DNA of 64,000 bases. Source: a virus. The translations under genes were made by a program, and so were the position numbers. Location: the IMG/VR virus record IMGVR_UViG_3300048817_000078, positions 6,072 through 70,071 of that record; one strand, 5' to 3'. Positions 730-28,650 of this stretch are shown here, one piece after another; within the stretch, counting starts at the first letter, position 1, and every line of letters begins with the position of its first letter. Under the pieces are notes generated by a model. The model did not search any database. It saw only the letters and a list, made by a program, of their open reading frames with translations, and had not been told where the DNA came from.

Positions 730-731
730 GG

Positions 732-866
732 GTGATTCTCTTAATGACTTCGGCGGTGCTCTACACGAGCGGCACATCGGCCCAGACCTTTACGTGGACC
801 ATTCAAAACACGAATAGCCAGGGAATCGACTACTACTTCTTCCAGGCAATTTCGGTGAAACCGTGA
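732..866 (+). pseudogene. 44-aa mini-ORF, paralogous to the C-terminus of the upstream protein (gene-replacement remnant)
   Basis: Encodes TWTIQNTNSQGI...ISVKP versus TWSAQNTQSQNI...LAVK upstream. Its TGA overlaps the next GTG start (GTGA). Confidence 0.45.
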
Positions 867-1795
867 GACAGTGCATAAGCGGTGCAGGCGTTGACACAAC
901 CACATCCGTCGTCACGTATCTTGCGGGCACCGTCAACCCTCTCATTCGGCACCTGTACCTGATCGGCGACCAGGATAACCCGCAGTCCATCTTCATGACC
1001 GACCACGAGGCACCGGTCATCTATCCGCCCTGGGGAACGTTCTATCCAGCCGTGGTTTCCAAGGGGTCGATCACATGCAAGGTTGGACTCGACGTTCAGA
1101 ACACCACAGTAAGCTGGTCACCCTCAAACCAAGACTTTACTTCGAGCGCGGCGACCGCAACGCCGCTGCAGCTTGCCCGCCAGCACTTCTATGACAACTG
1201 GCCGGTAAGGATCTGGAAATGCTTCATGCCGACGCCGGGCGATGCGAGCACGCTCGGCGCCTGCGAATGGTTCGGCGGCCGGATCGCAAACACGACGCTG
1301 GGCCGAAACCAGATTCAATTTCAGATCAACTCGTTCTTGGATGTGGTGACGCAGAAGGTTCCCGCGAACGTCATCGAGAGCACGTCGACCTTGGCCGGCT
1401 ACACGGCGGCGACCATTCCTGCGGGCGACCCTTCAATCCCCATCTTCAACGTATTCGTGGGGACAACGACAAACGCCATCATTGCGGACTGCATCTCGCC
1501 GACGCCGGGGAAGATTTACGCATTCAACCTGTTCGTGGCCGGATACCTGGTCTTCGTCAGCACTAACCCGGGCTCGACGCTGGGCGGTTTCTGGAGCGCG
1601 ATCTCGACCAACAACGAGTTTGTTGACGGCAACGGCAACACGCACAGCGTCTTCGATATCTATTCGTCGATGCCGTGGGCTCCGACGCCGGGTGTCGACC
1701 AGTTTTATGTGAGCACCGCAGCGCCGATCAATCAGGGCGACTCGCCGAACTTCGCCGGCTTTCCGTTCGTGCCCAGCCCGCAGAGCGCCGTTTAG
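863..1795 (+). CDS. Tail hub/baseplate protein, DUF2163 (lambda gpL/GTA-like)
   Basis: 310 aa; position upstream of NlpC/P60 and the tail tip; LDV...VSW...FGGRI...QFQINS pattern. Confidence 0.6.
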   Translation: MRQCISGAGVDTTTSVVTYLAGTVNPLIRHLYLIGDQDNPQSIFMTDHEAPVIYPPWGTFYPAVVSKGSITCKVGLDVQNTTVSWSPSNQDFTSSAATATPLQLARQHFYDNWPVRIWKCFMPTPGDASTLGACEWFGGRIANTTLGRNQIQFQINSFLDVVTQKVPANVIESTSTLAGYTAATIPAGDPSIPIFNVFVGTTTNAIIADCISPTPGKIYAFNLFVAGYLVFVSTNPGSTLGGFWSAISTNNEFVDGNGNTHSVFDIYSSMPWAPTPGVDQFYVSTAAPINQGDSPNFAGFPFVPSPQSAV

Positions 1796-1824
1796 GTCTT
1801 TGCAATCATCTCCAAGGACATTTC

Positions 1825-4800: not shown

Positions 4801-7800
4801 GCGCTCATCACGGACCTCACGCCGACAAACGGCAACGCCTCATGGGGCTACCAGCCGGTCTCAGGCAGCGTCGTATCCGACCCGTACTTTCCGGCGTGGC
4901 TATGCAATGTGACCCAGCTATCGGGCTTGGTCACCAGGGGATGCGCGGCAGGTCCCACCCTCAGTTCGATCGCCGTGACCACGACCGGTGGAATAACTAC
5001 CTTCGGAATCGGCGTAACGAATCAGCTCACCGCGACCTGCACGTACACCGGAAGCGGTGCGCCCTCGCCGACCAATTGCACCACGACCGATTCGCAGGGC
5101 AACCGCGCGTCCTTCACCAGCGGGACGCCGGCAACCGGAACAGTGACCTCGCCCGGCGGTCTCTTCACCGCGGTAGCGGCCGGCACGACGAACGTCACTG
5201 CCAATGTCGGCGCGGTCACCAGTTCGCCCGTCACCTTGACGGTGAGCCCATCGGTTCTCGCGGCCACGCCCAGCTTCTCACCGACCTCAGCCACGTTTAG
5301 CGGAAGCCTCTCCGTCACCATCTCGGATACGACTCCCAGCTCGACCATCTACTACACCAACGATGGCAGTACGCCTACGACGGGATCGACCGTCTATTCG
5401 AGCCCGTTGACGCTGACGGCTACCACCACGCTCAAGGCGATTGCCACGGCTTCGGGATTCGTGCAGAGCAACATCGGAACGTCTGTCTACACACTCTCAT
5501 CGGGCGGCGATACGCGCACGGTGACAGAGCCCGTCTTCCCGCCGGTATGCCAGGTGCTCAACGCGGTGCTCTCGATCGGCACAAGCACCTCGATCAATAA
5601 CGACCCCTACAACGTCACGCCTTACCTGCCGGCGAATAACTTCAGCTATGAGCCGTCGTCGGAGACGGCATTTGATACGACCCGCGTCCAGAACGCGCTC
5701 AATAGCTGCGCGAGCGGCCAAGCGGTAGAACTCGCACCCAGCACGGACGGCACCAAGTACGGCTTTCTTCTGCAACGCATCACCGTCCCCACGGGTGTGA
5801 GTCTCACGATCGACCCCGGCGTCGGCGTTTATGCCAGCAGGAACCCGGCCGACTACGGCGGGACCAATTGCGGCGTGGTAACCTCCGCGGGCGGCGGATG
5901 CAATCACTGGATCACGGGGCCGAACACAACCGGCTCCGGGATTTACGGCTATGGCCGCTTGGACGGCCGCGGATGGGACCGGCTCTTGGTCGGCGGCGTC
6001 CAGCAAAGCTATTCGTGGTACTCGAACACGATCCAGGCCTACTGCAATAAGCACAGCGGCGCAATCAACGGCTCGCCGCCTTGCACGCCGAACTCGCAGG
6101 GTGGAAATCAGTACGGCCCGAACATCTTAGCCATGGTCAACGCCAGCAGCTTCACGCTTTACAAGACGACCCTTCATGCCGGGCCGGAATTTCAATTTGA
6201 GTGGGAGGGCACTAACGGCGGTACGCAGGCAAACGGGCTGACCGTTTGGGGCGCGAAAATCATCACCCCATTTGAAACCAGCAATACCGACGGTATTGAC
6301 CCAACAAACAATTTTCAGAATGTCACGGTTGAGGACAGCTTCATATCCAATGGCGACAACCAGATGGCCATGAAGAGCACCAATGGCGGCGGCGCTGGAA
6401 AGAACGTCTCCATCCTGAATAACCATACCTATGCCGGAATCGAGATCGGCATCGGCAGCGATACGGGTGGAGGATTCAGCAACGTCGTCGTAAGCGGCCT
6501 CACGCAGAATGGCAACCTGAACAACGTCCAGAGCGCCGGCATTGGCATCAACAGCTCAACCTCCAATGGAGGCACCGTCTCAAACATCACGTTCACCGAT
6601 ATTTGCCAGGTGAACGAGCATGACACATGGAGGTTCTACACGAATTATGGCTGCGACACCGGCTCGCAGACCCCGCTCTATACCGGCATCAAGCTGTCGA
6701 ACATCACCGTCCTTCCCTCGACCGCGCCCTACACCACTGGCAACTCTGGATACTTCACCTTCCAGGGCCTCAACAGCAGCAACCTGATGGGTCTGTCGCT
6801 CAATAACATCAACATCAATGGAACCAACCAGGGCGTGACACAGCAGTGCAGCGTGACGAAGGACCAGTACGCGCAAATCGCCTTGGGCCCGAACTTTGTC
6901 GATTCCTCGCTATTGAGTCAGTTCGCAGCCGGGACGAGCGTCAACACGACCGGAAGCGGCAGCGGTGGCACGCCATACAACTGCAGCTATCCCTCAAGCT
7001 TCCAGCCCATCGTAGGCGAACTGTTGATGATGACGCCCACGGCAACCAACCAGCAATGCCGGCCGAACTGCACCTTCTCGGGTTCCACGGCAACGTACAC
7101 CTTGCAGGTAGTGATCCAGCCGGCGACTGAGATCAACTCCAAGGAGTCTTATGCGCTGACCAGCGGCCCGATCACGTTCTCTGACAATGGGACCCCGGTC
7201 GGCACGGCCACCATCGGGACCTACGGAGATAACGGAACGCTGGCGCAACTCACGCTGACCAACGTCGCCGCGGGCACCCACCACTATACGGCGACCTATC
7301 CCAGCGATGGCCATTATGCGTCGTGGACTCCATACACCTTTGGCAGTCTTAACGTCGATATCAACGGCTGCACTCCAGGCTGCACGGCGCCGCCGACATT
7401 CTCGCCGACCACCGAGGGCTTCACCGGCACGGTAACTGTCACAATCTCCGACTCCAGCCCATCGCCGACGATCTACTACACGACGGATGGAAGCGTACCA
7501 ACCACGGGCTCGTCGGTTTATTCAACTCCGCTGACCTTCAGCGCGACCACAACGTTGCGCGCCATTGCTACTTCGTCGGGACTCACCACGAGCACGTCGA
7601 GCCAAGCAGTCTATACGCTCGGATCGAACCCTGCAGCAACGCCAACCTTCTCGCCCAACTCCGAGACCTTCACCGGAAGCATCTCGGTAGTCATTAGCGA
7701 TTCGACCAGCAGTCCGACCGTCTATTACACGCTCGATGGTTCGACCCCGACGACCGCCTCCACGGTTTATTCTGGACCCCTTGCCATCTCCGCAAGCACA

Positions 7801-8382
7801 ACCGTCAAGGCAATTGCCACGGCGAGCGGCTTTACGCAAAGCGCGGTCGGAACCGCAGTCTATTCGCTGAGCGGTCCAACCGCAGCGACGCCTCTCTTTA
7901 CGCCGGGCTCGCAGGCGTTCACCGGGACGCTCTCGGTTGTGATCTCCGATACCACGCCGAGCTCGACGATCTACTACACAACCAATGGGACCACGCCCAA
8001 CACTGGCTCGACAGTCTATTCAGGCCCCATCAGCGTCTCGGCAAACACGATCATTAACGCCATTGCGGTCGCGACCGGGTACATCACGAGCGCCATGGGC
8101 ACGGCGACCTACACGCTGAGCAGCCAGACGCCGACCATCATTCCGGGCCCGCAGAAGTTCTCGACGACGCTGACGGTCAGCATCGTTAGTCCGGCGGGCG
8201 GCGTCATTCACTACACGGTGGACGGGAGCACGCCGACGAGTGCGTCGCCGCTCTATGCAGGGGCCTTTACGATCAGCGCAAGCACGACGGTGAAGGCGAT
8301 CACGATAGTCTCGGGCGTTACGAGCCTTCCGGCGACGGTGATCTATACGCAGGGGCAGTGTTTTGGGTGCTGGTGGAAATGA
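1825..8382 (+). CDS. 2185-aa Sec-exported multidomain protein: beta-helix, Ig (Big_2), beta-helix, Ig, chitobiase C-terminal repeat, GH28-like domain, Big_3, four more chitobiase repeats
   Basis: AAGGA RBS at 1814-1818, ATG 1825, signal peptide MKRLTLLLGALLALCAPMVRA|Q. GH28 hallmarks DTRTVTEP and NTDGIDP; YYTxDGSTP repeats. Confidence 0.85.
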   Translation: MKRLTLLLGALLALCAPMVRAQTINAASCSAADVQTAFNSVVTSTTQVNIPAGSCNWTTQVTLNVPSGNTNLSIIGATTISGSCAPGGTCTATDSTTITDNDGADQNCLICLGPGVASSFFRLSGLTVNIGSGHVKYNGMVAVSGYSQSTRLDHLHLNAGPNTPMRIGSGGWMYGVMDHSIIEDSGAVDVWDDNWGNPGGTTNTNYFGDDSFATATNFGSGNAFFFENNVFNSGSIPGQSASYMNDCYSGGRLVIRYNTMNNVGMDEHPTGGAGADIRGCRSMEVYGNQFNGAISPTTETYDFFYMQSATALVWNNTASGYEHFLDLHTTRSTDTTYAQSPTPGGWGYCGSTSGLSGDESAWDQTPTSTYGYKCLDEPGTGQSDLLNGTAPSKVDTATGTLTWPNQALEPLYEWLNSYTPSSGFPSSTYYTGYAPGLAANTDYYAYTGSFTGSSGTGSGLLASRPASCTTGVAYWATDQSTLYKCVGTNSWASYYTPYVYPHPLDTGGGSITLASIAVTGANTTAVGGTVDLTATCTYTGSGAPSPTNCTGPSTDSQGNAATWTSGTTLHATVGSTTGIVTGVAAGTSNITATAAGVNSPGFTVTVSSTTTYYMSPSGSDSNSGTSSGSPWATPNHSIACGTTISAAAGAYGTALGFGNWGTVTGCGSGSSENIAAVVCATPFACTVSLTSGSPGVGITASNWGVFGFVATATGGTASCFEAYPLGGSTIHHIVFGNDIANGCNSAGFSSPPNGSAGVDYFNVVGSISYNGSQESSECGSGISIWEPVQSDTLAGTHIYISQTFDWHNVNPNPCAGTPPTDGEGIIFDTWDANSYAQQGVMENNISLYNGNTGLRVDSTTLAHTFILNNTAYANAQDSAMVSSEFGEIFLQEDNNATASKNIVQPTVNTVGGYPVYTYGLSFYSAGSPGTNTVSNNQGYSSFGNDTNCQGTCTGFTFGPGNTTTNPSFTSAPGSVPSAPSCSSYATVPACMAALITDLTPTNGNASWGYQPVSGSVVSDPYFPAWLCNVTQLSGLVTRGCAAGPTLSSIAVTTTGGITTFGIGVTNQLTATCTYTGSGAPSPTNCTTTDSQGNRASFTSGTPATGTVTSPGGLFTAVAAGTTNVTANVGAVTSSPVTLTVSPSVLAATPSFSPTSATFSGSLSVTISDTTPSSTIYYTNDGSTPTTGSTVYSSPLTLTATTTLKAIATASGFVQSNIGTSVYTLSSGGDTRTVTEPVFPPVCQVLNAVLSIGTSTSINNDPYNVTPYLPANNFSYEPSSETAFDTTRVQNALNSCASGQAVELAPSTDGTKYGFLLQRITVPTGVSLTIDPGVGVYASRNPADYGGTNCGVVTSAGGGCNHWITGPNTTGSGIYGYGRLDGRGWDRLLVGGVQQSYSWYSNTIQAYCNKHSGAINGSPPCTPNSQGGNQYGPNILAMVNASSFTLYKTTLHAGPEFQFEWEGTNGGTQANGLTVWGAKIITPFETSNTDGIDPTNNFQNVTVEDSFISNGDNQMAMKSTNGGGAGKNVSILNNHTYAGIEIGIGSDTGGGFSNVVVSGLTQNGNLNNVQSAGIGINSSTSNGGTVSNITFTDICQVNEHDTWRFYTNYGCDTGSQTPLYTGIKLSNITVLPSTAPYTTGNSGYFTFQGLNSSNLMGLSLNNININGTNQGVTQQCSVTKDQYAQIALGPNFVDSSLLSQFAAGTSVNTTGSGSGGTPYNCSYPSSFQPIVGELLMMTPTATNQQCRPNCTFSGSTATYTLQVVIQPATEINSKESYALTSGPITFSDNGTPVGTATIGTYGDNGTLAQLTLTNVAAGTHHYTATYPSDGHYASWTPYTFGSLNVDINGCTPGCTAPPTFSPTTEGFTGTVTVTISDSSPSPTIYYTTDGSVPTTGSSVYSTPLTFSATTTLRAIATSSGLTTSTSSQAVYTLGSNPAATPTFSPNSETFTGSISVVISDSTSSPTVYYTLDGSTPTTASTVYSGPLAISASTTVKAIATASGFTQSAVGTAVYSLSGPTAATPLFTPGSQAFTGTLSVVISDTTPSSTIYYTTNGTTPNTGSTVYSGPISVSANTIINAIAVATGYITSAMGTATYTLSSQTPTIIPGPQKFSTTLTVSIVSPAGGVIHYTVDGSTPTSASPLYAGAFTISASTTVKAITIVSGVTSLPATVIYTQGQCFGCWWK
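3358..5244 (+). repeat. Two Ig-like (Big_2) domain copies at 3358-3642 and 4957-5244
   Basis: Both begin TLxSIAVT and share the identical peptide TATCTYTGSGAPSPTNCT. Confidence 0.8.
5260..8352 (+). repeat. Five chitobiase/beta-hexosaminidase C-terminal (Fn3-associated) repeats: 5260-5496, then four in tandem at 7384-8352
   Basis: Repeated consensus ATPxFSP...SVxISD...IYYTxDGSTPTxxSxVYSxP...TTxKAIA. Confidence 0.85.
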
Positions 8383-8576
8383 TGAACCTAAAGAGAAGAA
8401 TCCGGCAGTTCCTTACTCAGCCTCGCGAAATCAGACTGCAGCAATTCAAAGAGGCGGTCGCGCACATGGAAGAAACGATGACGCCAGAGGAGATGCGCCT
8501 CTTCGTAAAGTTCCCGTGCGGACCGCGGATGCTTGCGGAACAAAGAAAGAGACGCCTCAGTGGAAACGGCGGCTAG
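8379..8576 (+). CDS. Small hypothetical protein (65 aa)
   Basis: ATGA coupling to the giant gene; overlaps the NlpC/P60 start. Confidence 0.5.
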   Translation: MMNLKRRIRQFLTQPREIRLQQFKEAVAHMEETMTPEEMRLFVKFPCGPRMLAEQRKRRLSGNGG

Positions 8577-9090
8577 CGCGATATCCCGCGACGACGCGGT
8601 GAAGATTGCGCGGAGTTGGATTGGGACGCCGTACGTTTTAGGCGGACGGGTCAAGGGTGCAGGGACAGATTGCGCCACATGCCTGGCCGAGTACCTTCTT
8701 GAGTGCGGTTTCGCAGAGCGCGAGGATCTCGGCGTCTACTCGCACGATTGGTTCTGCCACGCGCCGGACGAGCGTTACATGCTGCGGCTGATTCGGCACG
8801 CACGCAAGACGTTGGAAGGCCGGTGCCGCGGCACGGTGGAAGCCTCGCCCGGCGACCTGATTCTCTTCAAGGTGGCGCGCTCCCGGCTCTTCAACCATGG
8901 CGGCATTGTGACCCGCTGGCCGTTCATGGTCCACGCTGCGAACCCGGTTGTGAAGGAACAGAACTGCGTGACTCACTGGATGACCGGGTATACCGAGTTC
9001 GCGGTGTTTGATCCTTGGCCTACTGAACAATCGCTAGCGCCTTCCGGTGGCTCAGCCTGTTTGGGTCCACACCTGTTAGGTACGCATTGA
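8560..9090 (+). CDS. NlpC/P60 tail-associated peptidase
   Basis: WIGTPYVLGG...GTDC...HGGIV...MVHA, with Cys/His catalytic residues; canonical position before the tail tip gene. Confidence 0.9.
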   Translation: METAASAISRDDAVKIARSWIGTPYVLGGRVKGAGTDCATCLAEYLLECGFAEREDLGVYSHDWFCHAPDERYMLRLIRHARKTLEGRCRGTVEASPGDLILFKVARSRLFNHGGIVTRWPFMVHAANPVVKEQNCVTHWMTGYTEFAVFDPWPTEQSLAPSGGSACLGPHLLGTH

Positions 9091-9247
9091 TGAATGACAG
9101 CGGCAACACCTTAGAACTCCATCCATAGGCGGCCATCAAAGGCTTCTTGTTTTGGTTATCCAGGCGGGTAGCCATTCGCTTTGTTCTGCACACCGAGACT
9201 TTAAACAGGTCACCGCGAATGTACGTAAAGACGAGCCACTTTTCCAT
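9020..9247 (-). CDS. Possible reverse-strand moron (75 aa)
   Basis: Fills the gap between NlpC/P60 and the tail tip gene; more AT-rich; no clear RBS. Confidence 0.3.
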   Translation of the reverse strand: MEKWLVFTYIRGDLFKVSVCRTKRMATRLDNQNKKPLMAAYGWSSKVLPLSFINAYLTGVDPNRLSHRKALAIVQ

Positions 9248-9277
9248 GAGCGCAATCTTACTTGGAGCGGGCCCTGA

Positions 9278-12200
9278 ATGCTAAGTGGAAAAGCAGCAGC
9301 CGCGACCAAGCCGACAGCGCTCGGGTCACTGCTCCAGGCTGCAACCTATGGGCAAACCATCCCGGTCATCTACGGGATGACGCAAAGCCCCTTGCTCGCC
9401 ATCTGGACCGCGAACATCCGCCAGGGCGGCAGCACAAAGAAGCTCAAGCAAGACATCAAGGGCGTGACCACATACGTCGAGAACATCGACTTCTTGCTCG
9501 GGCACAACCCCATCATGGGTGTCCAGCAGATGTGGAATAACGGGAGTCCCATCCCGCTCAACTTCATCACCCTCGCGGTGGGCGGGTCCGGGGCGGCCTC
9601 CTACACCATCGATGACCCGTATTTCTACTCGATCATCGCGGTCACGGTGGACCAGACATACACCGACGTGGTCTTCAACGATTACGGCGGGAACGGGCCG
9701 CAGAGCCTTTCGGGTACCATGCCCACGCCGTGTTGGAACACGCTGTTTTCCGGGCCGGCCTGGATTTCGCAGCAGCGCAACTTCCCATATACCTACCGCT
9801 GGGAGCCTTCGTACGGGTCGACGTTCTATCTCGACGGGCCGTTTTATGCCGCTCCAGGCGGCGTGGTCACGGTCTACTATACGCAGCTCAGGGCCGCCAC
9901 CAGCTACCTGCCGCCGATCCAAAAGGAGATGCTTGTCTTCGAGCCGCAGCTCGGCTCCGGGGCCGAGTACGAGGACGCCAACCTTACGGCCCAGCAGATC
10001 GTCTACCCGATGTTCGCGGGGCTTGGATCCTCAAGCATCGACCTCGGCGCGGGCGGCGTAATCCCGCAACTGCAGGTCGAGGTCCAGGGCAAGTGGGGCC
10101 TCTATCCAACCGGCGATGCCGACTTCGCCGACATGATCGAGGACGTCTTCCGCTCAGGCGTTGCCCAGGCAGCAATCGGCGACACCACCGGAACCATGCC
10201 GGGGTTTACCCAGGTTGAGCACGGGCTTTCGGGCTACGACTTTCCCGGCTGCGTGCAGAATCAATTTGCGGGCGGCGCGGATTTTCCTTCAAATCCCATC
10301 CCGTACAACCAGCCGAATACGAAGGGGAATTTCCTGGTCGTCATCGCCACTTCCGGGGCGACGGCCACGCTGGGCATATCGGACACGGCAGGGAACACAT
10401 GGACACCGCTGCTCGCCTCGGGCCTGTATATGCAGGTCTGGTGGGCACAAGCAAAAGCGTCAGGCCCAAACACCGTCGCAATCAGCGGGCCGCAGGGAAA
10501 CGACAGCGGCACGCAATTGCTCGAGATTGGAGGCGTCGACACCTTTGACAGTTCGACCATCGGAACGAGCCCGAGCGTTTCCCAGGTAACAACCAATCAG
10601 CAGGGCTTCCCGGCCTACATTCTTACCTTCTCGCTGTGGACGCCCGGCTCGCCCGGCTTTAGCACGACGCCGAATATACCGCTCTGGACGCCACTCAACG
10701 CGCCGAGCAACGTTTACGACCTGAACGCTCCCTATGAGTTAATCTTTTCGCGCACCGTGGAAACGCCGGGGACATACAAGTTCACGATGCCGCAACCCAG
10801 CTCGAATCCCAGCTACGTTTGCTCGCTGGCGTTCAAGTGCGCCATCGCGCCGCCAAGCTATCCGGCGCCGGTCGGCGACTACGTCGACAATTACTCGCTC
10901 GACACGGTACGCCTGCAATGCCGCGCCAATGGCCTCTGGGGCTCGCTCACGATGGATTCCCAGCAGGCGGCGAGCGATTGGCTGACTACGCTCTACCAGG
11001 CGGCCGACGCGGCGCCGCTGTTCATGGGGTTCAAGCTTTACAGCATCCCCTACTCGGAAGTCTCGAAGATTGGGAACGGCGCCATCTTCAACGCCTACAC
11101 GGCGTGCGGGCCGATCGCAAATCTGAGCACGGAGAACGGGGACTTCGTCGCATCGGGAAATACCCCACCGCTGACCATCAAGACGGCCGCACGCGTTGAC
11201 CAGCCAAACGTGCTGCAGATGCAGTGCATCAACCGGAGCTCGAACTACAACCCGAGCGTGGTCGAGCAACCGGACGCGGTGGGGATCTCGCTCTTCGGCA
11301 TACGCAAGGCCGACCCGGTGCAGAATTACGCCATCCAGGATGTGTCAATCGCGCGCCAGATTCTCGGCATCATGGTGCGCAAGCTCCAATACGGGGGAGA
11401 CGTTGCCAGCTTTACGGTCCCGGCCAAATGGTGCCTGCTCTCGCCGATGGATTTGATTACGGTGACGGACCCGCTCATGGGCGTCAATCAGTTACCCGTG
11501 CGCATCACCTCGATGGCCGAGCAGACCGACGGCTCGATCCAGTGCCAGGCCGAGCCCTTCGTTTACGGCATGTACGCGCCCACGCCGTTTTCAGCGAGCC
11601 AGTCCGGGGGCAGTTCGCCAAGCACGGGTGCAACCGTCACTCAGCCGATAAATCCGCCCATCATCTTCGAGCCGGTTCCGGGGCTGATCGGCTCGGCAAA
11701 TCAGGGCCAGGTGTGGCTTGTCATCTCGGACCCGGACCCGAACTTCGCCGGCGCGCAGGTCTACATCTCAACCGATGGCGGAGCGAGCTATATTTCCGCA
11801 GGTTCGCCCACCATAGGAAACGGAGTTCAGGGCGTCACCGTGGACGATTGGCCGGGTGCATCGAGCCCTGATACGACGAATAACCTCAGCGTCAACCTTA
11901 CCGAGAGCGCGGAGACACTTCAGAGCTACCCGGTCGCAACCGAGGATGGGTTCGTTTATCCCTGCTATGTAGAAAACGGGCCTCCGACGCCAGTCCTGCG
12001 TGGCTCTTCGTTTCTAACTCAGGGCCCAATTAGCAACACGATCCTCATCCCTCTCCCGGCCGGCTCAGAGGTGGGGGACCTTGCAATCCTTTTCGCTTCT
12101 GCCGGCGACAACATAGCCCCGGTCCCAGAAACCGGATGGGCGAACGCATACAGCGGGGGCGGCGGCGGCCCCTGGTCACAAATCTCCGTATATAAGCTGC

Positions 12201-12985
12201 TGATTAGCTTCGATATCACACTCGGATATGTGGAGGTCCAGTGCCCCGCAGGAGCCTTCGATATGGCTGGCGGGCTCGTCGTATTCGTTGGGCCTACTGG
12301 CGGCATACGCGAAACCGAGGGCATCGGAGGAGATGGCGGCAACATAACCCTGACCAACACGACTTCCGGGGCGGTTCTCGATACTGACGTGGCTGTTTAC
12401 TGGGCCTCTCTTCGCCAAGATGGCGGCCCCATCGATGCGCCCGTCATTACACCATCGACCGGCACAGCTAATACCCTTGGCGGTTCCGGAACGACGAATA
12501 TCTATGCCCTACTCGCAGATCAGGTTATGCCGGGTGGCGCGGTCACGGTCGAAAATAACTTTGTCGCGGCCGGCAACGGAGGCTTTGCGGTCCAAGTGAT
12601 TGTCGAGAGCGCCGCAACGCCAGAAGTGCCGTATGAGTTGATGACCTACGGCGCGGCGACGCTGACTGCGGTTTACAACTACACCCTTATGGCCACCGGG
12701 GTCGGAAACCATCTGGACCGTGCAGTTCTCGGGGCGCCGGCTACGGGCGTCGGCGTCGACCATCCAAACGGCTCTGCATTCGCCCTTCTGCCGCCGAGCG
12801 GACAGGGCATTTGCAAAGTACCGTTGCTGCCGGCCTGGGTCGGCGAAACGGTGCATTTCAAGATGCTCCCCTTCAATTCCTTCGGCGTCGTGACGGGAAC
12901 GCTCGCCGACGCAACCGCATACCCATACACGGTCCTCGGCACGAGCGGGACGGGTGCCCAAACTATCTCGGTTAATGGTTCTTAG
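9278..12985 (+). CDS. Tail tip / host-specificity protein (Phage-tail_3-like), 1235 aa
   Basis: YGQTIPVIYG N-terminal motif, LSPMDLITV/RITSM segment, GGAG RBS; follows NlpC/P60. Confidence 0.85.
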   Translation: MLSGKAAAATKPTALGSLLQAATYGQTIPVIYGMTQSPLLAIWTANIRQGGSTKKLKQDIKGVTTYVENIDFLLGHNPIMGVQQMWNNGSPIPLNFITLAVGGSGAASYTIDDPYFYSIIAVTVDQTYTDVVFNDYGGNGPQSLSGTMPTPCWNTLFSGPAWISQQRNFPYTYRWEPSYGSTFYLDGPFYAAPGGVVTVYYTQLRAATSYLPPIQKEMLVFEPQLGSGAEYEDANLTAQQIVYPMFAGLGSSSIDLGAGGVIPQLQVEVQGKWGLYPTGDADFADMIEDVFRSGVAQAAIGDTTGTMPGFTQVEHGLSGYDFPGCVQNQFAGGADFPSNPIPYNQPNTKGNFLVVIATSGATATLGISDTAGNTWTPLLASGLYMQVWWAQAKASGPNTVAISGPQGNDSGTQLLEIGGVDTFDSSTIGTSPSVSQVTTNQQGFPAYILTFSLWTPGSPGFSTTPNIPLWTPLNAPSNVYDLNAPYELIFSRTVETPGTYKFTMPQPSSNPSYVCSLAFKCAIAPPSYPAPVGDYVDNYSLDTVRLQCRANGLWGSLTMDSQQAASDWLTTLYQAADAAPLFMGFKLYSIPYSEVSKIGNGAIFNAYTACGPIANLSTENGDFVASGNTPPLTIKTAARVDQPNVLQMQCINRSSNYNPSVVEQPDAVGISLFGIRKADPVQNYAIQDVSIARQILGIMVRKLQYGGDVASFTVPAKWCLLSPMDLITVTDPLMGVNQLPVRITSMAEQTDGSIQCQAEPFVYGMYAPTPFSASQSGGSSPSTGATVTQPINPPIIFEPVPGLIGSANQGQVWLVISDPDPNFAGAQVYISTDGGASYISAGSPTIGNGVQGVTVDDWPGASSPDTTNNLSVNLTESAETLQSYPVATEDGFVYPCYVENGPPTPVLRGSSFLTQGPISNTILIPLPAGSEVGDLAILFASAGDNIAPVPETGWANAYSGGGGGPWSQISVYKLLISFDITLGYVEVQCPAGAFDMAGGLVVFVGPTGGIRETEGIGGDGGNITLTNTTSGAVLDTDVAVYWASLRQDGGPIDAPVITPSTGTANTLGGSGTTNIYALLADQVMPGGAVTVENNFVAAGNGGFAVQVIVESAATPEVPYELMTYGAATLTAVYNYTLMATGVGNHLDRAVLGAPATGVGVDHPNGSAFALLPPSGQGICKVPLLPAWVGETVHFKMLPFNSFGVVTGTLADATAYPYTVLGTSGTGAQTISVNGS

Positions 12986-13258
12986 ATGGGCGCATTCCAG
13001 GCAAATTTTTCCAACGTAACCCCGGCCGCGCCAGCGGATTACCCGAGTGTCTATTGGCAAAAGGGCCTAAGCCCTACCGGTGTAAACGCGGCGGGCCTGC
13101 CGATTTACGACGTCTCGGCCTACGTGCCGGTCGTTCTCGGCCCGGGCCCCGGCGGCACGCATGACGAGCCGCTGACCGATGGCAATGGAAACATAATCTT
13201 CGCTGCGACGCTCACGCTCGGAGGCGACGTAATCGTGGTTCTGGGAGTGCCAAATTGA
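12986..13258 (+). CDS. Hypothetical tail-module protein (90 aa)
   Basis: Abuts the tail tip stop; TTGA coupling to the next gene. Confidence 0.6.
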   Translation: MGAFQANFSNVTPAAPADYPSVYWQKGLSPTGVNAAGLPIYDVSAYVPVVLGPGPGGTHDEPLTDGNGNIIFAATLTLGGDVIVVLGVPN

Positions 13259-14454
13259 CGACCATTGCTCAAGTAATCCTTGAAGGCATCTACGCCGACA
13301 TCCCCGCCTATGGCATCCCCGGGCGCCTCTACTTCGCCACGGACACGAACATCACTTATCGCGACTCGGGTTCGGCCTGGGTCGAAGTGTTGTCCGGCGG
13401 CACCGGCACCGGAACGGTAACCAGCGTTGCGCTCACCGTGCCGGCGATTCTGTCTGTGAGCGGCTCGCCGATCACCGGTTCAGGCACGCTCGCGGTAACC
13501 CTTGCCACGGAGACGGCGAACGAAGTCTTTGCCGGCCCGGCGTCAGGATCCGCAGCAGATCCAACCTTCCGCGCATTGGCGGCGGCCGATTTGCCCTTGG
13601 CAACCACCGGCGCATTCGGAGCGGTCAAGCCCGACGGCTCTACCATCACCATTTCTGCCGGTGTCATCAGTTCGACTGCGCTCGCCAATCCGATGACGAC
13701 CGAAGGGGACATCATCTACGGCGGCGCGTCGGGTGTGCCCACCCGGTTGGCTGCTGGAACCAGCGGCGACGTTCTCCAGACGAATGGCTCCAGCTCGGCG
13801 CCCACATGGGTGACGCCCAGCGGCGGAGGCGGAGGCGGCCTATTCAGTGCCATCATGAGCGCGGTACCGACGCAGGCCGGCATCTCGCTCACAACCGCCT
13901 ACAATCAATCGGGTACCTTCACCGCAACGAACAATCCAACCGGCATCACGCTCGTCGACACAGGAACCCTCGGCGTTCATGTAGAGGGCATCCTGGGAAC
14001 GTATCCGGGGTCGGCCTTTACCCTTAACGCGCTGTTCTCGATGCCGGCCGGAATCATCAATGGGACCACGCAGCCGGTTTCGACCACGGGATTCGCCATC
14101 GTTATCGCCAATACGACAACCGGGGAGGCGCTCTATCTGGGTTTGCTCGATTACGGTGGGCCGCCATGGAACATCTACGTTGTCGAACTCACCAACCCGA
14201 CCACGCTCGGGACGCAGTTAGTACTGGCCGCGGATGGCATCCTTCAGCAAAGCCCGTTCGTATGGCTCCAGTTGCAGGACGATGGAACCAGCATCTACTT
14301 TCGCTTCTCCTACGACGGAAGCCTTTGGACGCAGGTCTACACAGTTACTAAATCTTCTAGCTATCTTGGCTCTGGTGGTTTCAACTATTTGGGTTATGCA
14401 ATTCTGCCGGACGGAGGACCGGTTGGTAACACGCTCATGAGTTGGGCGACCTAA
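13255..14454 (+). CDS. Tail fibre / receptor-binding protein
   Basis: GTVTSVALTVP...PTFRAL...DLP fibre motif, Gly linker, C-terminal lectin-like beta domain (WLQLQDDGTSIYFRFSYDG). Confidence 0.7.
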   Translation: MTTIAQVILEGIYADIPAYGIPGRLYFATDTNITYRDSGSAWVEVLSGGTGTGTVTSVALTVPAILSVSGSPITGSGTLAVTLATETANEVFAGPASGSAADPTFRALAAADLPLATTGAFGAVKPDGSTITISAGVISSTALANPMTTEGDIIYGGASGVPTRLAAGTSGDVLQTNGSSSAPTWVTPSGGGGGGLFSAIMSAVPTQAGISLTTAYNQSGTFTATNNPTGITLVDTGTLGVHVEGILGTYPGSAFTLNALFSMPAGIINGTTQPVSTTGFAIVIANTTTGEALYLGLLDYGGPPWNIYVVELTNPTTLGTQLVLAADGILQQSPFVWLQLQDDGTSIYFRFSYDGSLWTQVYTVTKSSSYLGSGGFNYLGYAILPDGGPVGNTLMSWAT

Positions 14455-19534: not shown

Positions 19535-19564
19535 TTGACAACGGTCTAGCGCCGTGGCTATAGT
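19535..19564 (+). promoter_or_regulatory. Sigma70-type rightward promoter (leaderless)
   Basis: TTGACA-N18-TATAGT with an upstream A-tract, 7 nt before ATG 19572. Confidence 0.7.
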
Positions 19565-22617: not shown

Positions 22618-22763
22618 CCTATATTTTTCGCTGGAACCGCATGAACCGCAAAGGTCAGCGCTGCCGAGTCCTGGCGCGGGGGAAGATGAACAGTTGCCTC
22701 GTCATCTTCGAGGATGGCTATCTTGCGGTGACGAGCCGCAACGCACTGCGAAGGGAGAAATGA
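22614..22763 (+). CDS. Small conserved phage protein (49 aa)
   Basis: RKGQRCRVLARGKMNSCLVIFEDG...VTSRNAL; GTGA coupling. Not in the provided ORF track. Confidence 0.6.
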   Translation: MTYIFRWNRMNRKGQRCRVLARGKMNSCLVIFEDGYLAVTSRNALRREK

Positions 22764-24086
22764 TTGCCAATTATTAATCTGAACTACACGATGTGGGACG
22801 CGGCCACGCAGGCGAAGGTAGTCGGCTGGCCGCTGCCTGCAACTCCAACCGATCTCTGGGCATACCAGAGGATTGCAGCGGGCGCTGCGGAATATAAGGC
22901 AGCCGGTTTCGATGCTGCCCTCTTCATGCCTTCCACGCTCGGCGCCGGCGGCATCTATAGCGACGGGTATGACCTAAAAGACAATTACACCCTTGATGGC
23001 ACAGCCTGGGGCTCGCAGGCTCAACTGGTGGCGGCGCTGAGCGCTCTACACGCGCAAGGCATGAGCGTTTATGGCGATGTCGTGCTGCACCAGATGGACG
23101 GCTATCCGAACCAGCAGTATAAGACGGCCAAGTTTCCCAAGACGCCACCGTGCTTTGCCCAGGTGCCTGGGCTTCTTGGCTATCCAGGCAACGTGGCCCC
23201 GGACTCCGTGCCTGATCCTTCTGGAGGCTGGCCGGATGGAGACCTGTGCGCCTACGACCAACCCGACCGCTATATGTGGAATGGGGCGATTGCCGCAGCC
23301 CAGTATCTCGCCAGCCTGGGGTTTAACGGCTTTCGCATCGACGAAGCTAAAGACATGCATGCGCCATTCGTGCTCGATCTGATGAACTCCGACACGCTAA
23401 AAGACCTGTTCTTCTTTGCGGAATACTTTGACGGCAATCCATACGCGCTGGCCGGCTACGTAAACTATTGGACCGCGCGCCGCTGCTCGGTGCTGGATTT
23501 CATGTTTAAGTTCAATGTCGGTACTATCTGCAACAACAACAGCCAAGTATGGATGGGCCAGCTATCCCAGATTGGCTACAACATGATCGATTCGATGAAG
23601 GCCGTCACCTTCGTTGAGAACGCCGACAGCGATACCAGTCCGGGCGAGCAGACGATCTGGAACAAGCAACTCGGCTATGACATCATGTTTAGCTTCCCCG
23701 GTGAGCCGATGACCTATTACCGGGACTGGTCTACCGATCCCAACTGCTATGGATTAAAAGCCGGCATCAACAATGGACTCTGGAGATGGAAGAACCTGGC
23801 CCAAGGCGGCTTTGTTACCCGGAATGCCGAATACCAGACCTTTGCGCATGAGCGGCTTGGCTATGGCAGCGCACCTGGGTGCGTCTGCCTATTCAACAAT
23901 GACCAATGGTCCGAACACAGCGTAACCGTGCAGACCCGCTATCCACGTGGCACAAGACTTCATGAATTTACTGGCAACAGTGGATATAATGCTGATAAGT
24001 GGACTGATTGGTGGGGTTGTATCACTGTAACTATCCCTAGAAACGTAAATGGCTGTAACTCTCTGGTTTATGGGGTATACCTATGA
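22764..24086 (+). CDS. GH13 alpha-amylase-family glycoside hydrolase (no signal peptide)
   Basis: GYD..D.Y; GDVVL; GFRIDEAK (nucleophile); FAEYFD (acid/base); FVENADSD; C-terminal beta domain. Confidence 0.85.
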   Translation: MPIINLNYTMWDAATQAKVVGWPLPATPTDLWAYQRIAAGAAEYKAAGFDAALFMPSTLGAGGIYSDGYDLKDNYTLDGTAWGSQAQLVAALSALHAQGMSVYGDVVLHQMDGYPNQQYKTAKFPKTPPCFAQVPGLLGYPGNVAPDSVPDPSGGWPDGDLCAYDQPDRYMWNGAIAAAQYLASLGFNGFRIDEAKDMHAPFVLDLMNSDTLKDLFFFAEYFDGNPYALAGYVNYWTARRCSVLDFMFKFNVGTICNNNSQVWMGQLSQIGYNMIDSMKAVTFVENADSDTSPGEQTIWNKQLGYDIMFSFPGEPMTYYRDWSTDPNCYGLKAGINNGLWRWKNLAQGGFVTRNAEYQTFAHERLGYGSAPGCVCLFNNDQWSEHSVTVQTRYPRGTRLHEFTGNSGYNADKWTDWWGCITVTIPRNVNGCNSLVYGVYL

Positions 24087-24602
24087 CACAAAGGCAGTGG
24101 CTCTCTATCCCAGGATTTTCTAAATACAATGTCAGCGACGATGGGCAGATAGTCCGCGTTGCTGGCGGCCCAGGTTCGCGAGCTGGGCTAATCATGAAGG
24201 CCAGGTTATTCAACGGGTATCTTTCGAATAAAATTGTCGGATGACCAAGGGGTTGTTCGCGAGCGCGGAGTTCATTTCCTTGTAGCTACTGCATTTATTG
24301 GCCCGCGTCCTTCCCAGCATCACGAGGTCGCACATGGAGACGGGCACCGGGCTAATAACGTTGTCGGCAATTTACGTTGGGCAACCAAGATAGAGAATTG
24401 GGCAGACCGCTATATCCATGGCACAGATGCGACCGGAATTCGCAACGGACGCGCAAAGCTAACCGAAGAAAACGTGGCTGCGATCAAGGCCGAGCTTAAA
24501 TCGCCACACCGCCGTGAATTCAGGGATATCGCTCGCCATTACGGCGTCTCTCATGGCCTTATCGGACACATCAATCGGGGCAGGCTTTGGAGCCACATGT
24601 GA
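24083..24602 (+). pseudogene. NUMOD4-HNH homing endonuclease split by a one-base frameshift
   Basis: WLSIPGFSKYNVSDDG...GYL continues as RIKLSDD...VHFLVATAF...H.DG...NN...NL.W after skipping T24224. Confidence 0.75.
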
Positions 24603-24651
24603 TTCCTCGCAACGTCAACGGCTGTAATTCGCTTTGCTACGGAGTTTACCT

Positions 24652-25047
24652 ATGAGCCGGAAGCCAATCCCGGAGCGGTGGCGCGAAAACCTCCTGAGCT
24701 TTTACGATGATCGTCGCCTGATCAAAGAAGAACTGTACGAAGCAGAGAGCGCCGTCGAATCCTTAAAGGCAAACGTTGGATTCTTGAGCGGATCCATCTT
24801 AGCGTACGAGGCGAAGCTGGGCGCAGCCGAGGCCGAGAGGGATGCGCTGCGGGAAGAGCGCAACACGGCGAACAACTACATCCTGGATGGTTGCGGAGGT
24901 CAGGAATATCTCGACGCTCGACTGGCCGCGCTCCAAGCGCAGAACCGGGAACTGCGGGAAGCGCTGGAGTGGATTCGTGAGCACGCGAACTGGTCTTTCG
25001 ATGTCAGGAAGCAAGCCGAAGCAGCGATCGCCAAGACCCACCCATGA
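24652..25047 (+). CDS. Coiled-coil hypothetical protein
   Basis: GGAG RBS; ATGA coupling downstream. Confidence 0.55.
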   Translation: MSRKPIPERWRENLLSFYDDRRLIKEELYEAESAVESLKANVGFLSGSILAYEAKLGAAEAERDALREERNTANNYILDGCGGQEYLDARLAALQAQNRELREALEWIREHANWSFDVRKQAEAAIAKTHP

Positions 25048-25876: not shown

Positions 25877-27688
25877 ATGAACCGCCGCGAAATGCTTCAG
25901 CTATCCGCCCTTTCTCTCGCTGCCGGGGCGCTCCCGGCAAGAGCACAAGCGCCGCAATCGGGTGTTATGGCTCCGGTGCTCAAGCGCGGCTACGACCTCG
26001 CGAACACCGGCTGCAATCTTTCGGAGACGACGCTGACACTCGCCAAGGTCAAGGCGACCGGCGTCCGTTTGCTCGGAACGCTGCAGATGACCGGGGACAA
26101 GGTTGGCGCCGAAGCCCAGATACTCATCGTTCCCGCGGTGCTCATGTCCGATGGCTTCAAGCATGACATCGCGGTCCTGCCCGACATGGCCGGCCAGGTC
26201 TGGTGCTGGGACGCAATCACCTACCAGCTGCTGTGGAAGCAGACGATTTGCCTGCCCATCATGGGAACCACGGCGATCGATGCGTGGATGATTAATCAGC
26301 ACTGGGCCACGCTCTCGACCGGCGTAATCGATCCGGCAACGAATCTTCTGTATCTATGCGCCTGGCACTCGCAGGATGGCACTGCGGCCACAGCGATGCA
26401 TTACCTGCACTGCCTGCGGCTCTTCGATGGCTCACAGCCGAATCCTGCTATCGATCTAGCCTCAACCACGTATCAGCCCGCCAGCGGCCCCCTGCAGAGC
26501 TACAACGCGACGATGCGCAAGCAGCGCTCAAGCCTGACGCTCGAAACCTTTGGCGATAATAAGACGGTCCTGTGGGCTGCAGGCACAGTAGCCGAAACAA
26601 GCTCAACGGCGAGCGGATGGGTATTCGCCTACGACATCGCGAGCGGTAAGATTACAGCGCGCACGCTCTCCGATGCGAATTACGGCGCGGGCGTCTGGAT
26701 GGCCGGCGCCTCTATATCGATTGACAGCAAGGGGCGAATTTACTTGGTGACCGGCAACGGCACGTTTGACGGGGTGGGCAGCTTTGGGGAGTGCGCGGTA
26801 AAACTGCTGTATCTACCGCCAACATCTACGGCGGCCGGCTCATTCCAGGTGGTCGATTGGTTCTGTCCCTACACCGATCAGCAGCGCGAAGGACAAACGA
26901 TTCCCGACGAGACCAAGATAGCCGGAGTATCGGGGCCATCTGCGGCCATGGCGATGCAGGTCGCAGTGAGCGATACCGGCTATAACGACCAGGATTTGGG
27001 GTCCGCTCCCGGATGTCTGCTCGAATCGCTGGGACTCTACTTGGCATGCGGCAAAGACGGAATTTTGTACGCCACAAAGATCGGCAACATGGGCCAGACC
27101 ACGCTGGCGCAGCTCGCTGCCGGTCAGCAGTATGCAGCGCTGGCCTTCCCGCCGATCTACTTCACATATTTCCCCGGCTACAGCGTAAGTCCGGATCCGC
27201 TGAACCCAGATGCGCTCGACGTGATGGGCGGCGGAAAGACACGGCACAATCATTCCCAAATCGTGCAGTATCTCTCTGCGACTCACGGTCAGATGGTTTT
27301 CTGTGCGGGCGAGAACTCGCCTGTTCGGGCCTGGACCGTTACTGCGACCGGCATAACATTCCTCGCGCAATCGAACGAGATATCCAGCGCGCAGGTTACG
27401 GCACCGGGCGGGGGAATGCCTGGGATGCAGATGACCTTGGCGGCGAGTCCGGGCGGCGGCGCAATTCTTGTTTGCTCGTGCCCGTATCTCAACGCCAACC
27501 AAGTCGTGTCGAATGGCCGCCTGTTGATCTATGACGCGAACAACTTCGTTAACGGCGTCATGCAGCTAATCTGGGACTCGCAGGCGGAAGGGATTCCATA
27601 TCTCTATAACAAATTTTGCCCGCCGGTCATCGATGGCGGCAAGATTTGGCTGAACACCTATGGGGATCAGGTTTTGATTTTGGGGTAA
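25877..27688 (+). CDS. Tat-exported PQQ-like beta-propeller protein (603 aa)
   Basis: MNRREMLQL...ARA|Q twin-Arg signal; GVWMAG...IYLVTGNGTFD and DQDLGS motifs. Confidence 0.75.
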   Translation: MNRREMLQLSALSLAAGALPARAQAPQSGVMAPVLKRGYDLANTGCNLSETTLTLAKVKATGVRLLGTLQMTGDKVGAEAQILIVPAVLMSDGFKHDIAVLPDMAGQVWCWDAITYQLLWKQTICLPIMGTTAIDAWMINQHWATLSTGVIDPATNLLYLCAWHSQDGTAATAMHYLHCLRLFDGSQPNPAIDLASTTYQPASGPLQSYNATMRKQRSSLTLETFGDNKTVLWAAGTVAETSSTASGWVFAYDIASGKITARTLSDANYGAGVWMAGASISIDSKGRIYLVTGNGTFDGVGSFGECAVKLLYLPPTSTAAGSFQVVDWFCPYTDQQREGQTIPDETKIAGVSGPSAAMAMQVAVSDTGYNDQDLGSAPGCLLESLGLYLACGKDGILYATKIGNMGQTTLAQLAAGQQYAALAFPPIYFTYFPGYSVSPDPLNPDALDVMGGGKTRHNHSQIVQYLSATHGQMVFCAGENSPVRAWTVTATGITFLAQSNEISSAQVTAPGGGMPGMQMTLAASPGGGAILVCSCPYLNANQVVSNGRLLIYDANNFVNGVMQLIWDSQAEGIPYLYNKFCPPVIDGGKIWLNTYGDQVLILG

Positions 27689-27903: not shown

Positions 27904-28650
27904 ATGGGTAGAGAAACAACTATCGCCTGGGCCAACGCAACGTACAACCCGTGGTGGGGCTGCACGAAGGTGAGTCCCGGTTGCGATAACTGCTATGCCG
28001 AGGCCTTTGACAAGCGCGTGGGCGGCGCGCACTGGGGCAAAGGACAGCCGCGCCGCACGTTCGGAGATAAGCATTGGGCCGAGCCCCTCAAATGGGAGCG
28101 CGACGCCGCGAAGACCGGCGAGCAAATCCGCGTCTTCTGCGCGTCGATGGCCGACGTTATGGACGACGAGGCACCGGCCGGCGAGCGTGAACGCCTGTGG
28201 CAACTCATCGACGCAACGCCGCACCTTACCTGGCTGCTACTGACCAAGAGGCCGCATCGATACGAACGGTATCTTCCGTTTCAGTTCAAACACAAAAACG
28301 TGTGGCTCGGCACGAGCGCGGGGAATCAGCGCTTCTACGATGCCCGATGGCCAATCCTGGGCGAGATAGCGGAACGCTTCGGACTTGTGAGCTGGATCAG
28401 CTATGAGCCGGCCCTCGGGCCGCTGAACATGGGCGGTTTCCATGGCAACCCAAACTGGATTATCTGCGGCGGCGAAAGTGGTCCTGGGCACCGGCCAATG
28501 CGGCAGGAGTGGGCTGAGAACCTGCGGCGCGAATGCTTAGCCACCGGTACCGCGTTCTTCGTGAAACAGATGAGCGCGAGAACGCCGGCCGCTGGAGCTG
28601 TACTCATACCGGCACATCTGCTGGTGCGCGAGTTCCCCGATGCCGGATGA
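27904..28650 (+). CDS. DUF5131 (Gp37/Gp68) family protein
   Basis: NPWWGCTKVSPGCDNCYAE; RVFCASMAD; LLLTKRP; WIICGGESG; FFVKQM. Confidence 0.9.
   Translation: MGRETTIAWANATYNPWWGCTKVSPGCDNCYAEAFDKRVGGAHWGKGQPRRTFGDKHWAEPLKWERDAAKTGEQIRVFCASMADVMDDEAPAGERERLWQLIDATPHLTWLLLTKRPHRYERYLPFQFKHKNVWLGTSAGNQRFYDARWPILGEIAERFGLVSWISYEPALGPLNMGGFHGNPNWIICGGESGPGHRPMRQEWAENLRRECLATGTAFFVKQMSARTPAAGAVLIPAHLLVREFPDAG

Follow-up and report, generated by a model that had tools for sequence, protein, structure and literature searches.

A GH13-like phage gene without the classical active-site histidines looks like half of a mobile two-gene cassette

Introduction

What is the role of a phage-borne GH13-like enzyme in which the three classical histidines of the active site have been replaced? 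This question is raised by a gene at positions 22764–24086 of a 64,000-nucleotide stretch of viral DNA (hereafter the window), which comprises bases 6072–70071 of the 72-kb linear IMG/VR virus record IMGVR_UViG_3300048817_000078. Viral GH13 “alpha-amylases” have been listed as auxiliary metabolic genes (AMGs) in soil and rumen viromes (PMC6460857), and a GH13 gene in a phage is not new in itself. The main text of a paper on the carbohydrate-active enzymes of soil prophages (PMC13507307) does not mention GH13.

The original prediction, made from the letters of the sequence, described a GH13 alpha-amylase without a signal peptide, encoded among phage genes, that retains the catalytic Asp/Glu/Asp but has lost the conserved His of regions I, II and IV. 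It considered GH13 enzymes to be rare in phages, proposed either a role in mobilizing host glycogen or an altered specificity such as that of a transglycosylase, and named relaxed selection and misassembly as findings that would speak against it. Based on the fold, the active-site residues, the relatives of the protein and the genes that accompany it, we arrive at a different picture: the GH13-like gene looks like one half of a mobile two-gene sugar-processing cassette, and not like a simple glycogen-digesting helper.

Results

Fold and active site of the GH13-like protein

The features of the window are collected in Table 1. The N-terminus of the GH13-like protein is fixed and leaves no room for a signal peptide, because an in-frame TGA immediately precedes the TTG start codon and seven phage homologs share the N-terminal sequence MPI(L/I)(N/D)LN. 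The maximal hydropathy over 15 residues is 0.51 in this region, compared to 1.4 for the twin-arginine translocation (Tat) leader of the neighboring protein encoded at 25877–27688. On each of these counts, the predicted absence of a signal peptide holds.

Table 1. Features of the window in and around the GH13-like gene. Single positions and entries without remarks are given according to the gene content of the window.
Feature	Position	Strand	Remarks
Tail genes	1–14454		From window gene content
Sigma-70-like promoter, TTGACA-18-TATAGT	19535..19564	+	Consensus match only (11/12); upstream of recT; possible start of the co-directional array holding the GH13-like gene
RecT	19595		
Exonuclease	20914		
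KTSC-domain protein	21601		Upstream of the GH13-like gene
Ribosome-binding site, GGGAG	22753..22757	+	6 nt 5′ of the TTG start
Leaderless GH13-fold “HQ-type” enzyme gene	22764..24086	+	440 aa; TTG start; only long open reading frame (ORF) found there
Conserved region I, DVVLHQ	23076..23093	+	Asp105; His109-Gln110 in place of the canonical Asn-His; H109 and Q110 invariant in alignments A1 and A3
Conserved region II, RIDEAKD	23334..23354	+	Arg191, nucleophile Asp193, Lys196; Asp197 at the His position
Conserved region III, AEYFD	23418..23432	+	Glu220, general acid/base
Conserved region IV, FVENADSD	23610..23633	+	Ala287 at the His position, followed by Asp288; position of Ala287 varies in the family (A, P or H)
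Recoded last 18 codons and stop of the GH13-like ORF	24030..24086	+	Came with the HNH cassette
Free-standing HNH_3 homing-endonuclease gene	24083..24602	+	Two frames, split at an A-run near 24230; identical in independent contigs
Leftover native 3′ end of the GH13-like gene	24599..24655	+	Encoded end (SLCYGVYL and stop) identical to that of L016, the closest relative
132-aa gene	24649..25047	+	ATG and native stop overlap (ATGA); in L017, the GH13-like gene is followed by a weak homolog
Small ORFs	Between the HNH endonuclease and the 25877 gene		
Conserved partner, 603-aa PQQ-dehydrogenase/BamB-type eight-bladed beta-propeller	25877..27688	+	Twin-arginine leader MNRREML...ARAQA
DUF5131 (Gp37/Gp68-type) protein	27904–28650		Next to the integrase
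Integrase	29405		
tRNA-Arg	30717		
MT-A70 methylase	After tRNA-Arg		
Portal	47517		

An AlphaFold model of the GH13-like protein, for which 31 homologs were used (predicted local distance difference test [pLDDT] 80.6, predicted template modeling score [pTM] 0.85), predicts a (beta/alpha)8 barrel, a domain B inserted behind beta3 and a beta-sandwich at the C-terminus, as is typical of the GH13 fold. The top 50 Foldseek matches of this model are all GH13 proteins, the best being 3qgv (E 2e-27, template modeling [TM] score 0.76). A sequence search of the PDB yielded full-length alignments to the GH13_7 alpha-amylases of Pyrococcus and Thermococcus (E 3e-21 and 4e-20), while identity to the GH13_7 and GH13_5 structures is only 19–25%. 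Of the profiles, the NCBIfam alpha-amylase model NF006970 fits best and matches residues 30–428 (E 1.8e-45). In the PDB search the N-terminal quarter (residues 26–121) also aligns to GH70 dextransucrases, but the protein does not belong to GH70: the match to the Pfam model PF02324 covers residues 64–122 only and stays below threshold (20.2 bits, cut-off 24), and the fold of the whole protein is that of the non-permuted GH13 amylases.

The active-site residues were mapped by alignment to the Pyrococcus and Thermococcus alpha-amylases (1mwo, 3qgv) and within a 120-sequence alignment of the family. D193 falls on the position of the nucleophile, E220 on that of the acid/base and D288 on that of the third Asp, so that the catalytic residues are retained just as predicted. 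R191, which represents the invariant Arg of GH13 two residues before the nucleophile, is present as well, and so is Lys196. The three classical GH13 His positions of regions I, II and IV are occupied by Q110, D197 and A287, and the protein thus lacks the conserved His in all three regions. While this threefold replacement had been recognized correctly, one part of it is not distinctive: the region II His is already a Gly (DYVKG) in the nearest solved relatives of group GH13_7 and in most of the family. Since it is missing there too, only the changes in regions I and IV are lineage-specific. In region I, the Asn preceding the His is likewise changed, which turns the “NH” of canonical amylases into “HQ”. 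We therefore refer to the protein and its closest relatives as HQ-type.

A deep lineage under purifying selection

A homolog search returned 130 relatives of the GH13-like protein. Among the 116 near-full-length sequences, region I reads HQ in 104, NQ in five and NH in another five cases, and the region IV residue is Ala (53), Pro (28) or His. The residues H109, Q110, D193, K196, E220, D288 and D290 are invariant in the homolog alignments down to 33% identity. The HQ of region I marks a deep lineage and is a lineage-wide feature rather than a phage peculiarity. This lineage is best regarded as a variant inside the GH13 clan that may well merit a subfamily of its own.

An exhaustive HMMER search over 1.84 billion cluster representatives gave 332 matches at E ≤ 0.001, 42 of which reach ≤ 1e-30. 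Almost half of the full-length cluster representatives (41 of 85) are both HQ-type and leaderless; the NH-type relatives mostly carry signal peptides. The window protein belongs to a short form of 434–459 aa, which constitutes a single well-supported clade nested within long forms of ~580 aa. The latter have an additional C-terminal domain of ~130 aa, a beta-sandwich with a weak PPC-like signal that we take as a lead only (Atlas search, 0.87).

Within the short form, a seven-member subclade (P0004, P0008, P0011, P0012, P0015, P0016 and P0019; for example the gene at 8001–9314 of L005) carries Ile or Leu instead of the region II Arg, one of four residues held invariant in GH13. The same subclade has a His again in region IV. 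Loss of the Arg together with regain of the His suggests that the lineage is trading the contacts it makes to O2/O3 of the −1 sugar.

We compared the seven phage copies of the gene to determine the selection acting on it. The proportion of nonsynonymous differences (pN) is 0.10–0.32 and that of synonymous differences (pS) is saturated at 0.66–0.78, resulting in dN/dS ratios of at most 0.03–0.17, which are upper bounds because of this saturation. The gene is under strong purifying selection and is not a decaying copy; the relaxed selection that would have counted against the original prediction is not borne out.

Genes of this type are rare. Strong matches were obtained in only two of 301 sampled Acidobacteriota species genomes, and the HQ-type lineage has no match in 50,697 INPHARED phage records or in PHROGs. 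While GH13 genes of phages have already been reported from viromes, this particular lineage is rare among isolated phages. Such a distribution fits an accessory, mobile cassette.

Conserved pairing with a propeller protein

In all loci that provide enough flanking DNA around an HQ-type gene (11/11; phages, prophages and chromosomes, 33–83% identity), this gene is accompanied by a homolog of the window protein encoded at 25877–27688. A profile search of genome contigs with alignment A1 yielded three loci. Both genes overlap by 4 bp in Lichenicoccus (L014), in an Acidobacteriota chromosome (L015/G212) and in a chromosomal contig (L019), and in a 130-kb phage-like contig (L009) they flank an 89-aa gene, with a 4-bp overlap at either junction. 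A 30-nt gap separates them in a 5.2-Mb genome (L010), where they lie beside Rho, a GH78 rhamnosidase and pyruvate dehydrogenase E1, and the partner is adjacent in a 61.6-kb phage (L003). It is located upstream, with gaps of 79 and 35 nt, in a prophage-like region of a 300-kb contig (L006) and in another chromosomal contig (L018), respectively. Larger distances are found in the window, where the partner follows ~1.8 kb downstream, and in two phages of 71 kb (L005; 2.4 kb) and 70 kb (L017; 1.7 kb). No homolog of the partner is encoded beside the canonical NH-type relative of L008 or the NQ-type relative P0115, and a pairing of GH13 with a quinoprotein was not found described in the literature.

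The remaining chromosomal neighbors are inconsistent and give no clue to the substrate: a GH78 rhamnosidase in L010, an extracytoplasmic function (ECF) sigma factor and efflux genes in L015, and MntP in L018 and L019. In L009, we also observed a gene (4512–6815) that lies ~1.2 kb upstream of the one for the GH13-like protein; its product of 767 aa contains a Cas12f1-like TnpB domain.

For the partner, we found more than 300 homologs, none of which is named, and its sequence had no matches in the PDB or NCBIfam. The model of this protein is an eight-bladed propeller (pLDDT 84, pTM 0.87), whose best structural neighbors are the alcohol (E 1e-10), sorbose and polyvinyl-alcohol dehydrogenases dependent on pyrroloquinoline quinone (PQQ), together with BamB. 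Pfam matches to PQQ models stay below threshold. In L019, pqqB, pqqC, pqqD and pqqE are located directly upstream of the pair, and each of them scores above its curated NCBIfam cut-off. This arrangement, found in one locus, supports the tentative assignment of the partner as a genuine quinoprotein. In L019 (533–9569), a 31-aa ORF (possibly pqqA) comes first, followed by the complete pqqBCDE operon, a homolog of animal-type haem peroxidases, a gene for an MntP-like protein and finally the leaderless pair. In L018, too, the pair is preceded by an MntP-like gene.

The leader of the partner depends on the clade. In the window and the whole phage clade it is of the Tat type (MNRRxF...), in L003 and L009 of the general secretion (Sec) type, and in L006, L018 and L019 it is missing. 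The GH13-like protein is leaderless in all HQ-type cases. Because the two proteins are often found in different compartments, we favor a shared pathway over an obligate complex. A complex prediction for the homologous L005 pair scored 0.00; it was run without controls and has no bearing on binding either way. PADLOC gave a generic GlgB-like match of 20 bits for the GH13-like protein and none for the partner, so that a known defence role is unsupported.

Phage context of the cassette

As predicted, the GH13-like gene is flanked by phage genes on both sides, with RecT, the exonuclease and the KTSC-domain protein upstream and the HNH endonuclease, DUF5131, the integrase and tRNA-Arg downstream. 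Between the promoter at 19535 and the integrase, no convincing terminator was found on the plus strand. The gene lies within a virus record and has chromosomal homologs (L010, L015), as expected of viral cargo, and early or lysogeny-proximal cargo of a temperate phage is a fair description of it. For the DUF5131 protein encoded beside the integrase, PADLOC gave matches to two candidate defence components, PDC-M41B and PDC-M30B (E ~1e-43).

Misassembly, the other finding that would have spoken against the prediction, is excluded because independent non-source contigs match the region exactly: a 2815-bp contig covers 22764–25578 and another one 23243–24789, both with 0 differences. Moreover, a 2.6-kb stretch is near-complete in 17 peat and permafrost metagenome runs from 2018–2025. 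Exact-match contigs from a peat metatranscriptome library cover short parts inside the ORF (23232–23382 and 23452–23602). A second such library (X18) contains exact-match contigs at 24257–24406, within the HNH gene, and at 24738–24934, within the 132-aa gene. These contigs are a weak hint of expression, since carry-over of DNA is possible.

The 3′ end of the GH13-like gene is present twice. The stretches at 24030–24086 and 24599–24655 are identical at 40 of 57 nt, and 12 of the 17 differences affect third codon positions. Because this 18-codon end is duplicated around the HNH_3 gene, we conclude that a homing-type cassette entered 54 nt before the stop and brought a synonymously recoded end with it. 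By this replacement end, the reading frame of the enzyme was kept intact, which indicates functional constraint. The 132-aa gene, whose start codon overlaps the native stop, was formerly coupled to the GH13-like gene. Additional HNH_3 genes are located immediately upstream of the GH13-like gene in Lichenicoccus (L014, 7338–7934) and inside the ERF/YqaJ recombination module of L017 (6789–7292); several free-standing homing endonucleases are thus present in these phages.

Discussion

A proposed role for the HQ-type enzyme and its partner

With moderate confidence, we propose that the HQ-type protein is a competent retaining alpha-glycosidase or transglycosylase of a deep lineage, that it acts in one pathway with the propeller, and that both are encoded by a cassette of cellular origin carried as phage cargo. 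We infer enzymatic activity, the class of substrate and the functional link to the partner on the background of the fold, residues, selection, pairing and phage context described above. By homology, catalysis would proceed by double displacement, in which Asp193 is the nucleophile, Glu220 serves as acid/base and the transition state is stabilized by Asp288. Subsite −1 is remodeled: Gln110 stands in for the region I His, as in GH70, His109 replaces the Asn of the Ca site, and Ala287 removes the His of region IV. This His normally contacts O2/O3. Because it is lost, and in some members the region II Arg as well, the enzyme may lean towards transfer or accept a −1 sugar that is modified at its O2/O3 side. 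Hydrolysis of starch and glycogen would be weakened, and transfer, or an alpha-glycoside with a modified −1 sugar, would be favored. Such a modification could be introduced by the partner, an approximately 600-aa PQQ-dehydrogenase-like propeller that is probably a quinoprotein oxidoreductase and, in the phage, would be exported by Tat; both proteins would most likely act on the same carbohydrate. The cassette would originate from cells, namely Acidobacteriota and some Acetobacteraceae, and temperate peat-soil phages would have captured it as cargo between their recombination module and integrase.

Precedents for the proposed change of activity come from two sides. In fungal Agt proteins, replacement of the region I His goes along with very low hydrolysis and pronounced transglycosylation, and mutation of this His has been reported to lower activity and to change the reaction type (PMC10512346). 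GH70 enzymes use a conserved Gln to hydrogen-bond the −1 sugar at its 6-OH (PMC9732880). By analogy, the altered specificity considered in the original prediction, such as that of a transglycosylase, would fit both cases.

A more far-reaching proposal, which is possible but doubtful, is an undescribed two-enzyme system that would combine a PQQ oxidoreductase with an alpha-glycosidase or transglycosylase lacking the His. Both would act sequentially on one alpha-linked carbohydrate, for example by oxidizing a sugar and, coupled to this, cleaving or transferring the modified glycoside. A new GH13 subfamily and specificity would then be at hand, and temperate phages would spread the system among soil Acidobacteriota in the form of a conversion cassette.

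Comparison with known enzymes

The closest solved enzymes are the archaeal GH13_7 amylases (Pyrococcus woesei 1mwo/1mxd, Thermococcus 3qgv) and the “Termamyl-like” GH13_5 amylases, which have the same three-domain GH13 fold and a length of ~435 aa. They align over the full length at only 24–25% identity, and the catalytic Asp/Glu/Asp as well as the region II Arg fall on matching positions. GH13_7 shares with the HQ-type also the absent region II His (DYVKG) and a similar beta8 motif (YYRDW vs. FYRDY). In contrast to both groups, the HQ-type has HQ instead of NH in region I, Ala instead of His in region IV and a divergent domain B with invariant motifs of its own; moreover, it is leaderless and always found with the propeller partner. 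In the NF006970 group (PRK09441.1-3) and the NH-type relatives P0100–P0104, the nucleophile is likewise followed directly by Asp/Glu (R-x-D-D-x-K-G), and the EYFD motif is present too. P0100–P0104, however, keep both His, carry signal peptides and are encoded in carbohydrate-utilization loci without the partner.

As in the HQ-type, region I ends in Gln in the GH70 glucansucrases and 4,6-alpha-glucanotransferases. This similarity is limited to the beta2-beta3 stretch: the HQ-type shows neither circular permutation nor domains IV/V, and GH70 keeps the region IV His that is an Ala here. A functional precedent within GH13 is given by the fungal alpha-glucanotransferases AgtA/AmyD, whose region I His is naturally replaced (PMC10512346). 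They differ in that they are eukaryotic, secreted and attached by a glycosylphosphatidylinositol (GPI) anchor, have Asn rather than Gln at this position, belong to another subfamily and lack a propeller partner. The GH13 AMGs of viromes (PMC6460857) are likewise GH13 genes in viral genomes with cellular homologs, but they represent ordinary amylases at the level of annotation, whereas the HQ-type comes as a two-gene cassette.

Points against the proposed role and alternative explanations

Several observations weigh against the role proposed above. The Pfam GH13 model PF00128 finds no match at E ≤ 0.01, and the NF006970 match scores 155.5 bits, far below the equivalog cut-off of 516; because these curated thresholds are not reached, the assignment to GH13 relies on structure prediction and PDB alignment. 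Domain B, which shapes the substrate cleft, is modeled at low confidence (residues 110–120 and 137–161). The two genes are often not adjacent in phage loci but 1.7–2.4 kb apart, and the partner is also found alone (L011). The structural matches of the partner reach a TM score of only ~0.5, and the PQQ biosynthesis genes were seen in one locus, so that the link of the modeled propeller to PQQ is tentative. Finally, the two proteins often reside in separate compartments, and because the partner is exported in most loci and the GH13-like protein is not, a shared pathway needs transport of an intermediate.

Of the alternatives, a classical AMG survives best: an alpha-amylase that stays in the cytoplasm and, during infection, breaks down glycogen or maltodextrin of the host so that phage replication is fueled. 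The leaderless protein, a fold nearest to that of alpha-amylases, the position in an early, recombination-proximal array and the viral GH13 AMGs known from viromes (PMC6460857) would agree with this role, as would, if only as a weak hint that DNA carry-over could equally explain, the metatranscriptome contigs inside the ORF. Nevertheless, we consider it unlikely, and less likely than the shared pathway with the propeller. The −1 subsite lacks both substrate-binding His, and in characterized GH13 enzymes losing the His of region I reduces amylase activity and changes which kind of reaction is catalyzed (PMC10512346). Strict linkage in 11 of 11 loci to a propeller that is exported in most of them has no place in glycogen catabolism; in addition, the same pair occurs in chromosomes beside housekeeping genes, and the lineage is rare (2/301 Acidobacteriota species genomes). 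The glycogen-mobilizing AMG of the original prediction overlooks this conserved and partly chromosomal pairing and is not supported in its simple form.

Alternatively, the GH13-like protein might fold in the cytoplasm, bind the Tat-dependent propeller and be exported together with it, so that an alpha-glucan in the periplasm or on the surface of the lysogen would be remodeled by the pair, as a form of lysogenic conversion. Arginine-pair leaders (MNRRxF...) throughout the phage clade of partners, the constant lack of a leader on the GH13-like protein and the 4-bp gene overlaps, which suggest stoichiometric co-production, are consistent with this idea, and the PPC-like signal of the long forms, a lead only, is typical of secreted proteins. 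However, because the partner has a Sec-type leader in L003 and L009 and none in L006, L018 and L019, co-export is not a general mechanism of the family, and PQQ enzymes normally acquire their cofactor in the periplasm. Export by hitchhiking is therefore quite improbable.

That the loss of the His residues turned the protein into a non-catalytic pseudo-enzyme or a carbohydrate-binding protein might be suspected from the substitution of all three classical positions and, in seven relatives, even of the region II Arg. Inactive GH13 members of the 4F2hc/rBAT group, however, have lost catalytic residues and not just His, whereas the catalytic Asp/Glu/Asp of the HQ-type is invariant in more than 100 homologs at 33–83% identity and dN/dS is at most 0.17, which makes this explanation very unlikely. 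Equally improbable is a depolymerase, released by lysis or associated with the virion, that attacks host exopolysaccharide or capsule from outside: the L014 pair lies near a glycine-rich gene of the tail-fibre type, but the window gene is distant from the structural genes (tail, portal), carries no fusion to a tail or fibre domain and has chromosomal counterparts outside prophages.

Significance

Few enzyme families have been studied as much as GH13, whose three His of the active site are treated as near-universal; the HQ-type lineage discards them under strong selection. Together with its tie to a quinoprotein-like propeller, this points to an undescribed specificity and perhaps to a connection, new in kind, of oxidative with glycosidic chemistry on carbohydrates. 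In this respect it goes beyond the usual, less specific “viral amylase AMG” known from annotation. Temperate phages that move such a cassette among the Acidobacteriota of peat and permafrost soils would provide a concrete and testable example of phage-borne carbohydrate metabolism in a climate-relevant habitat.

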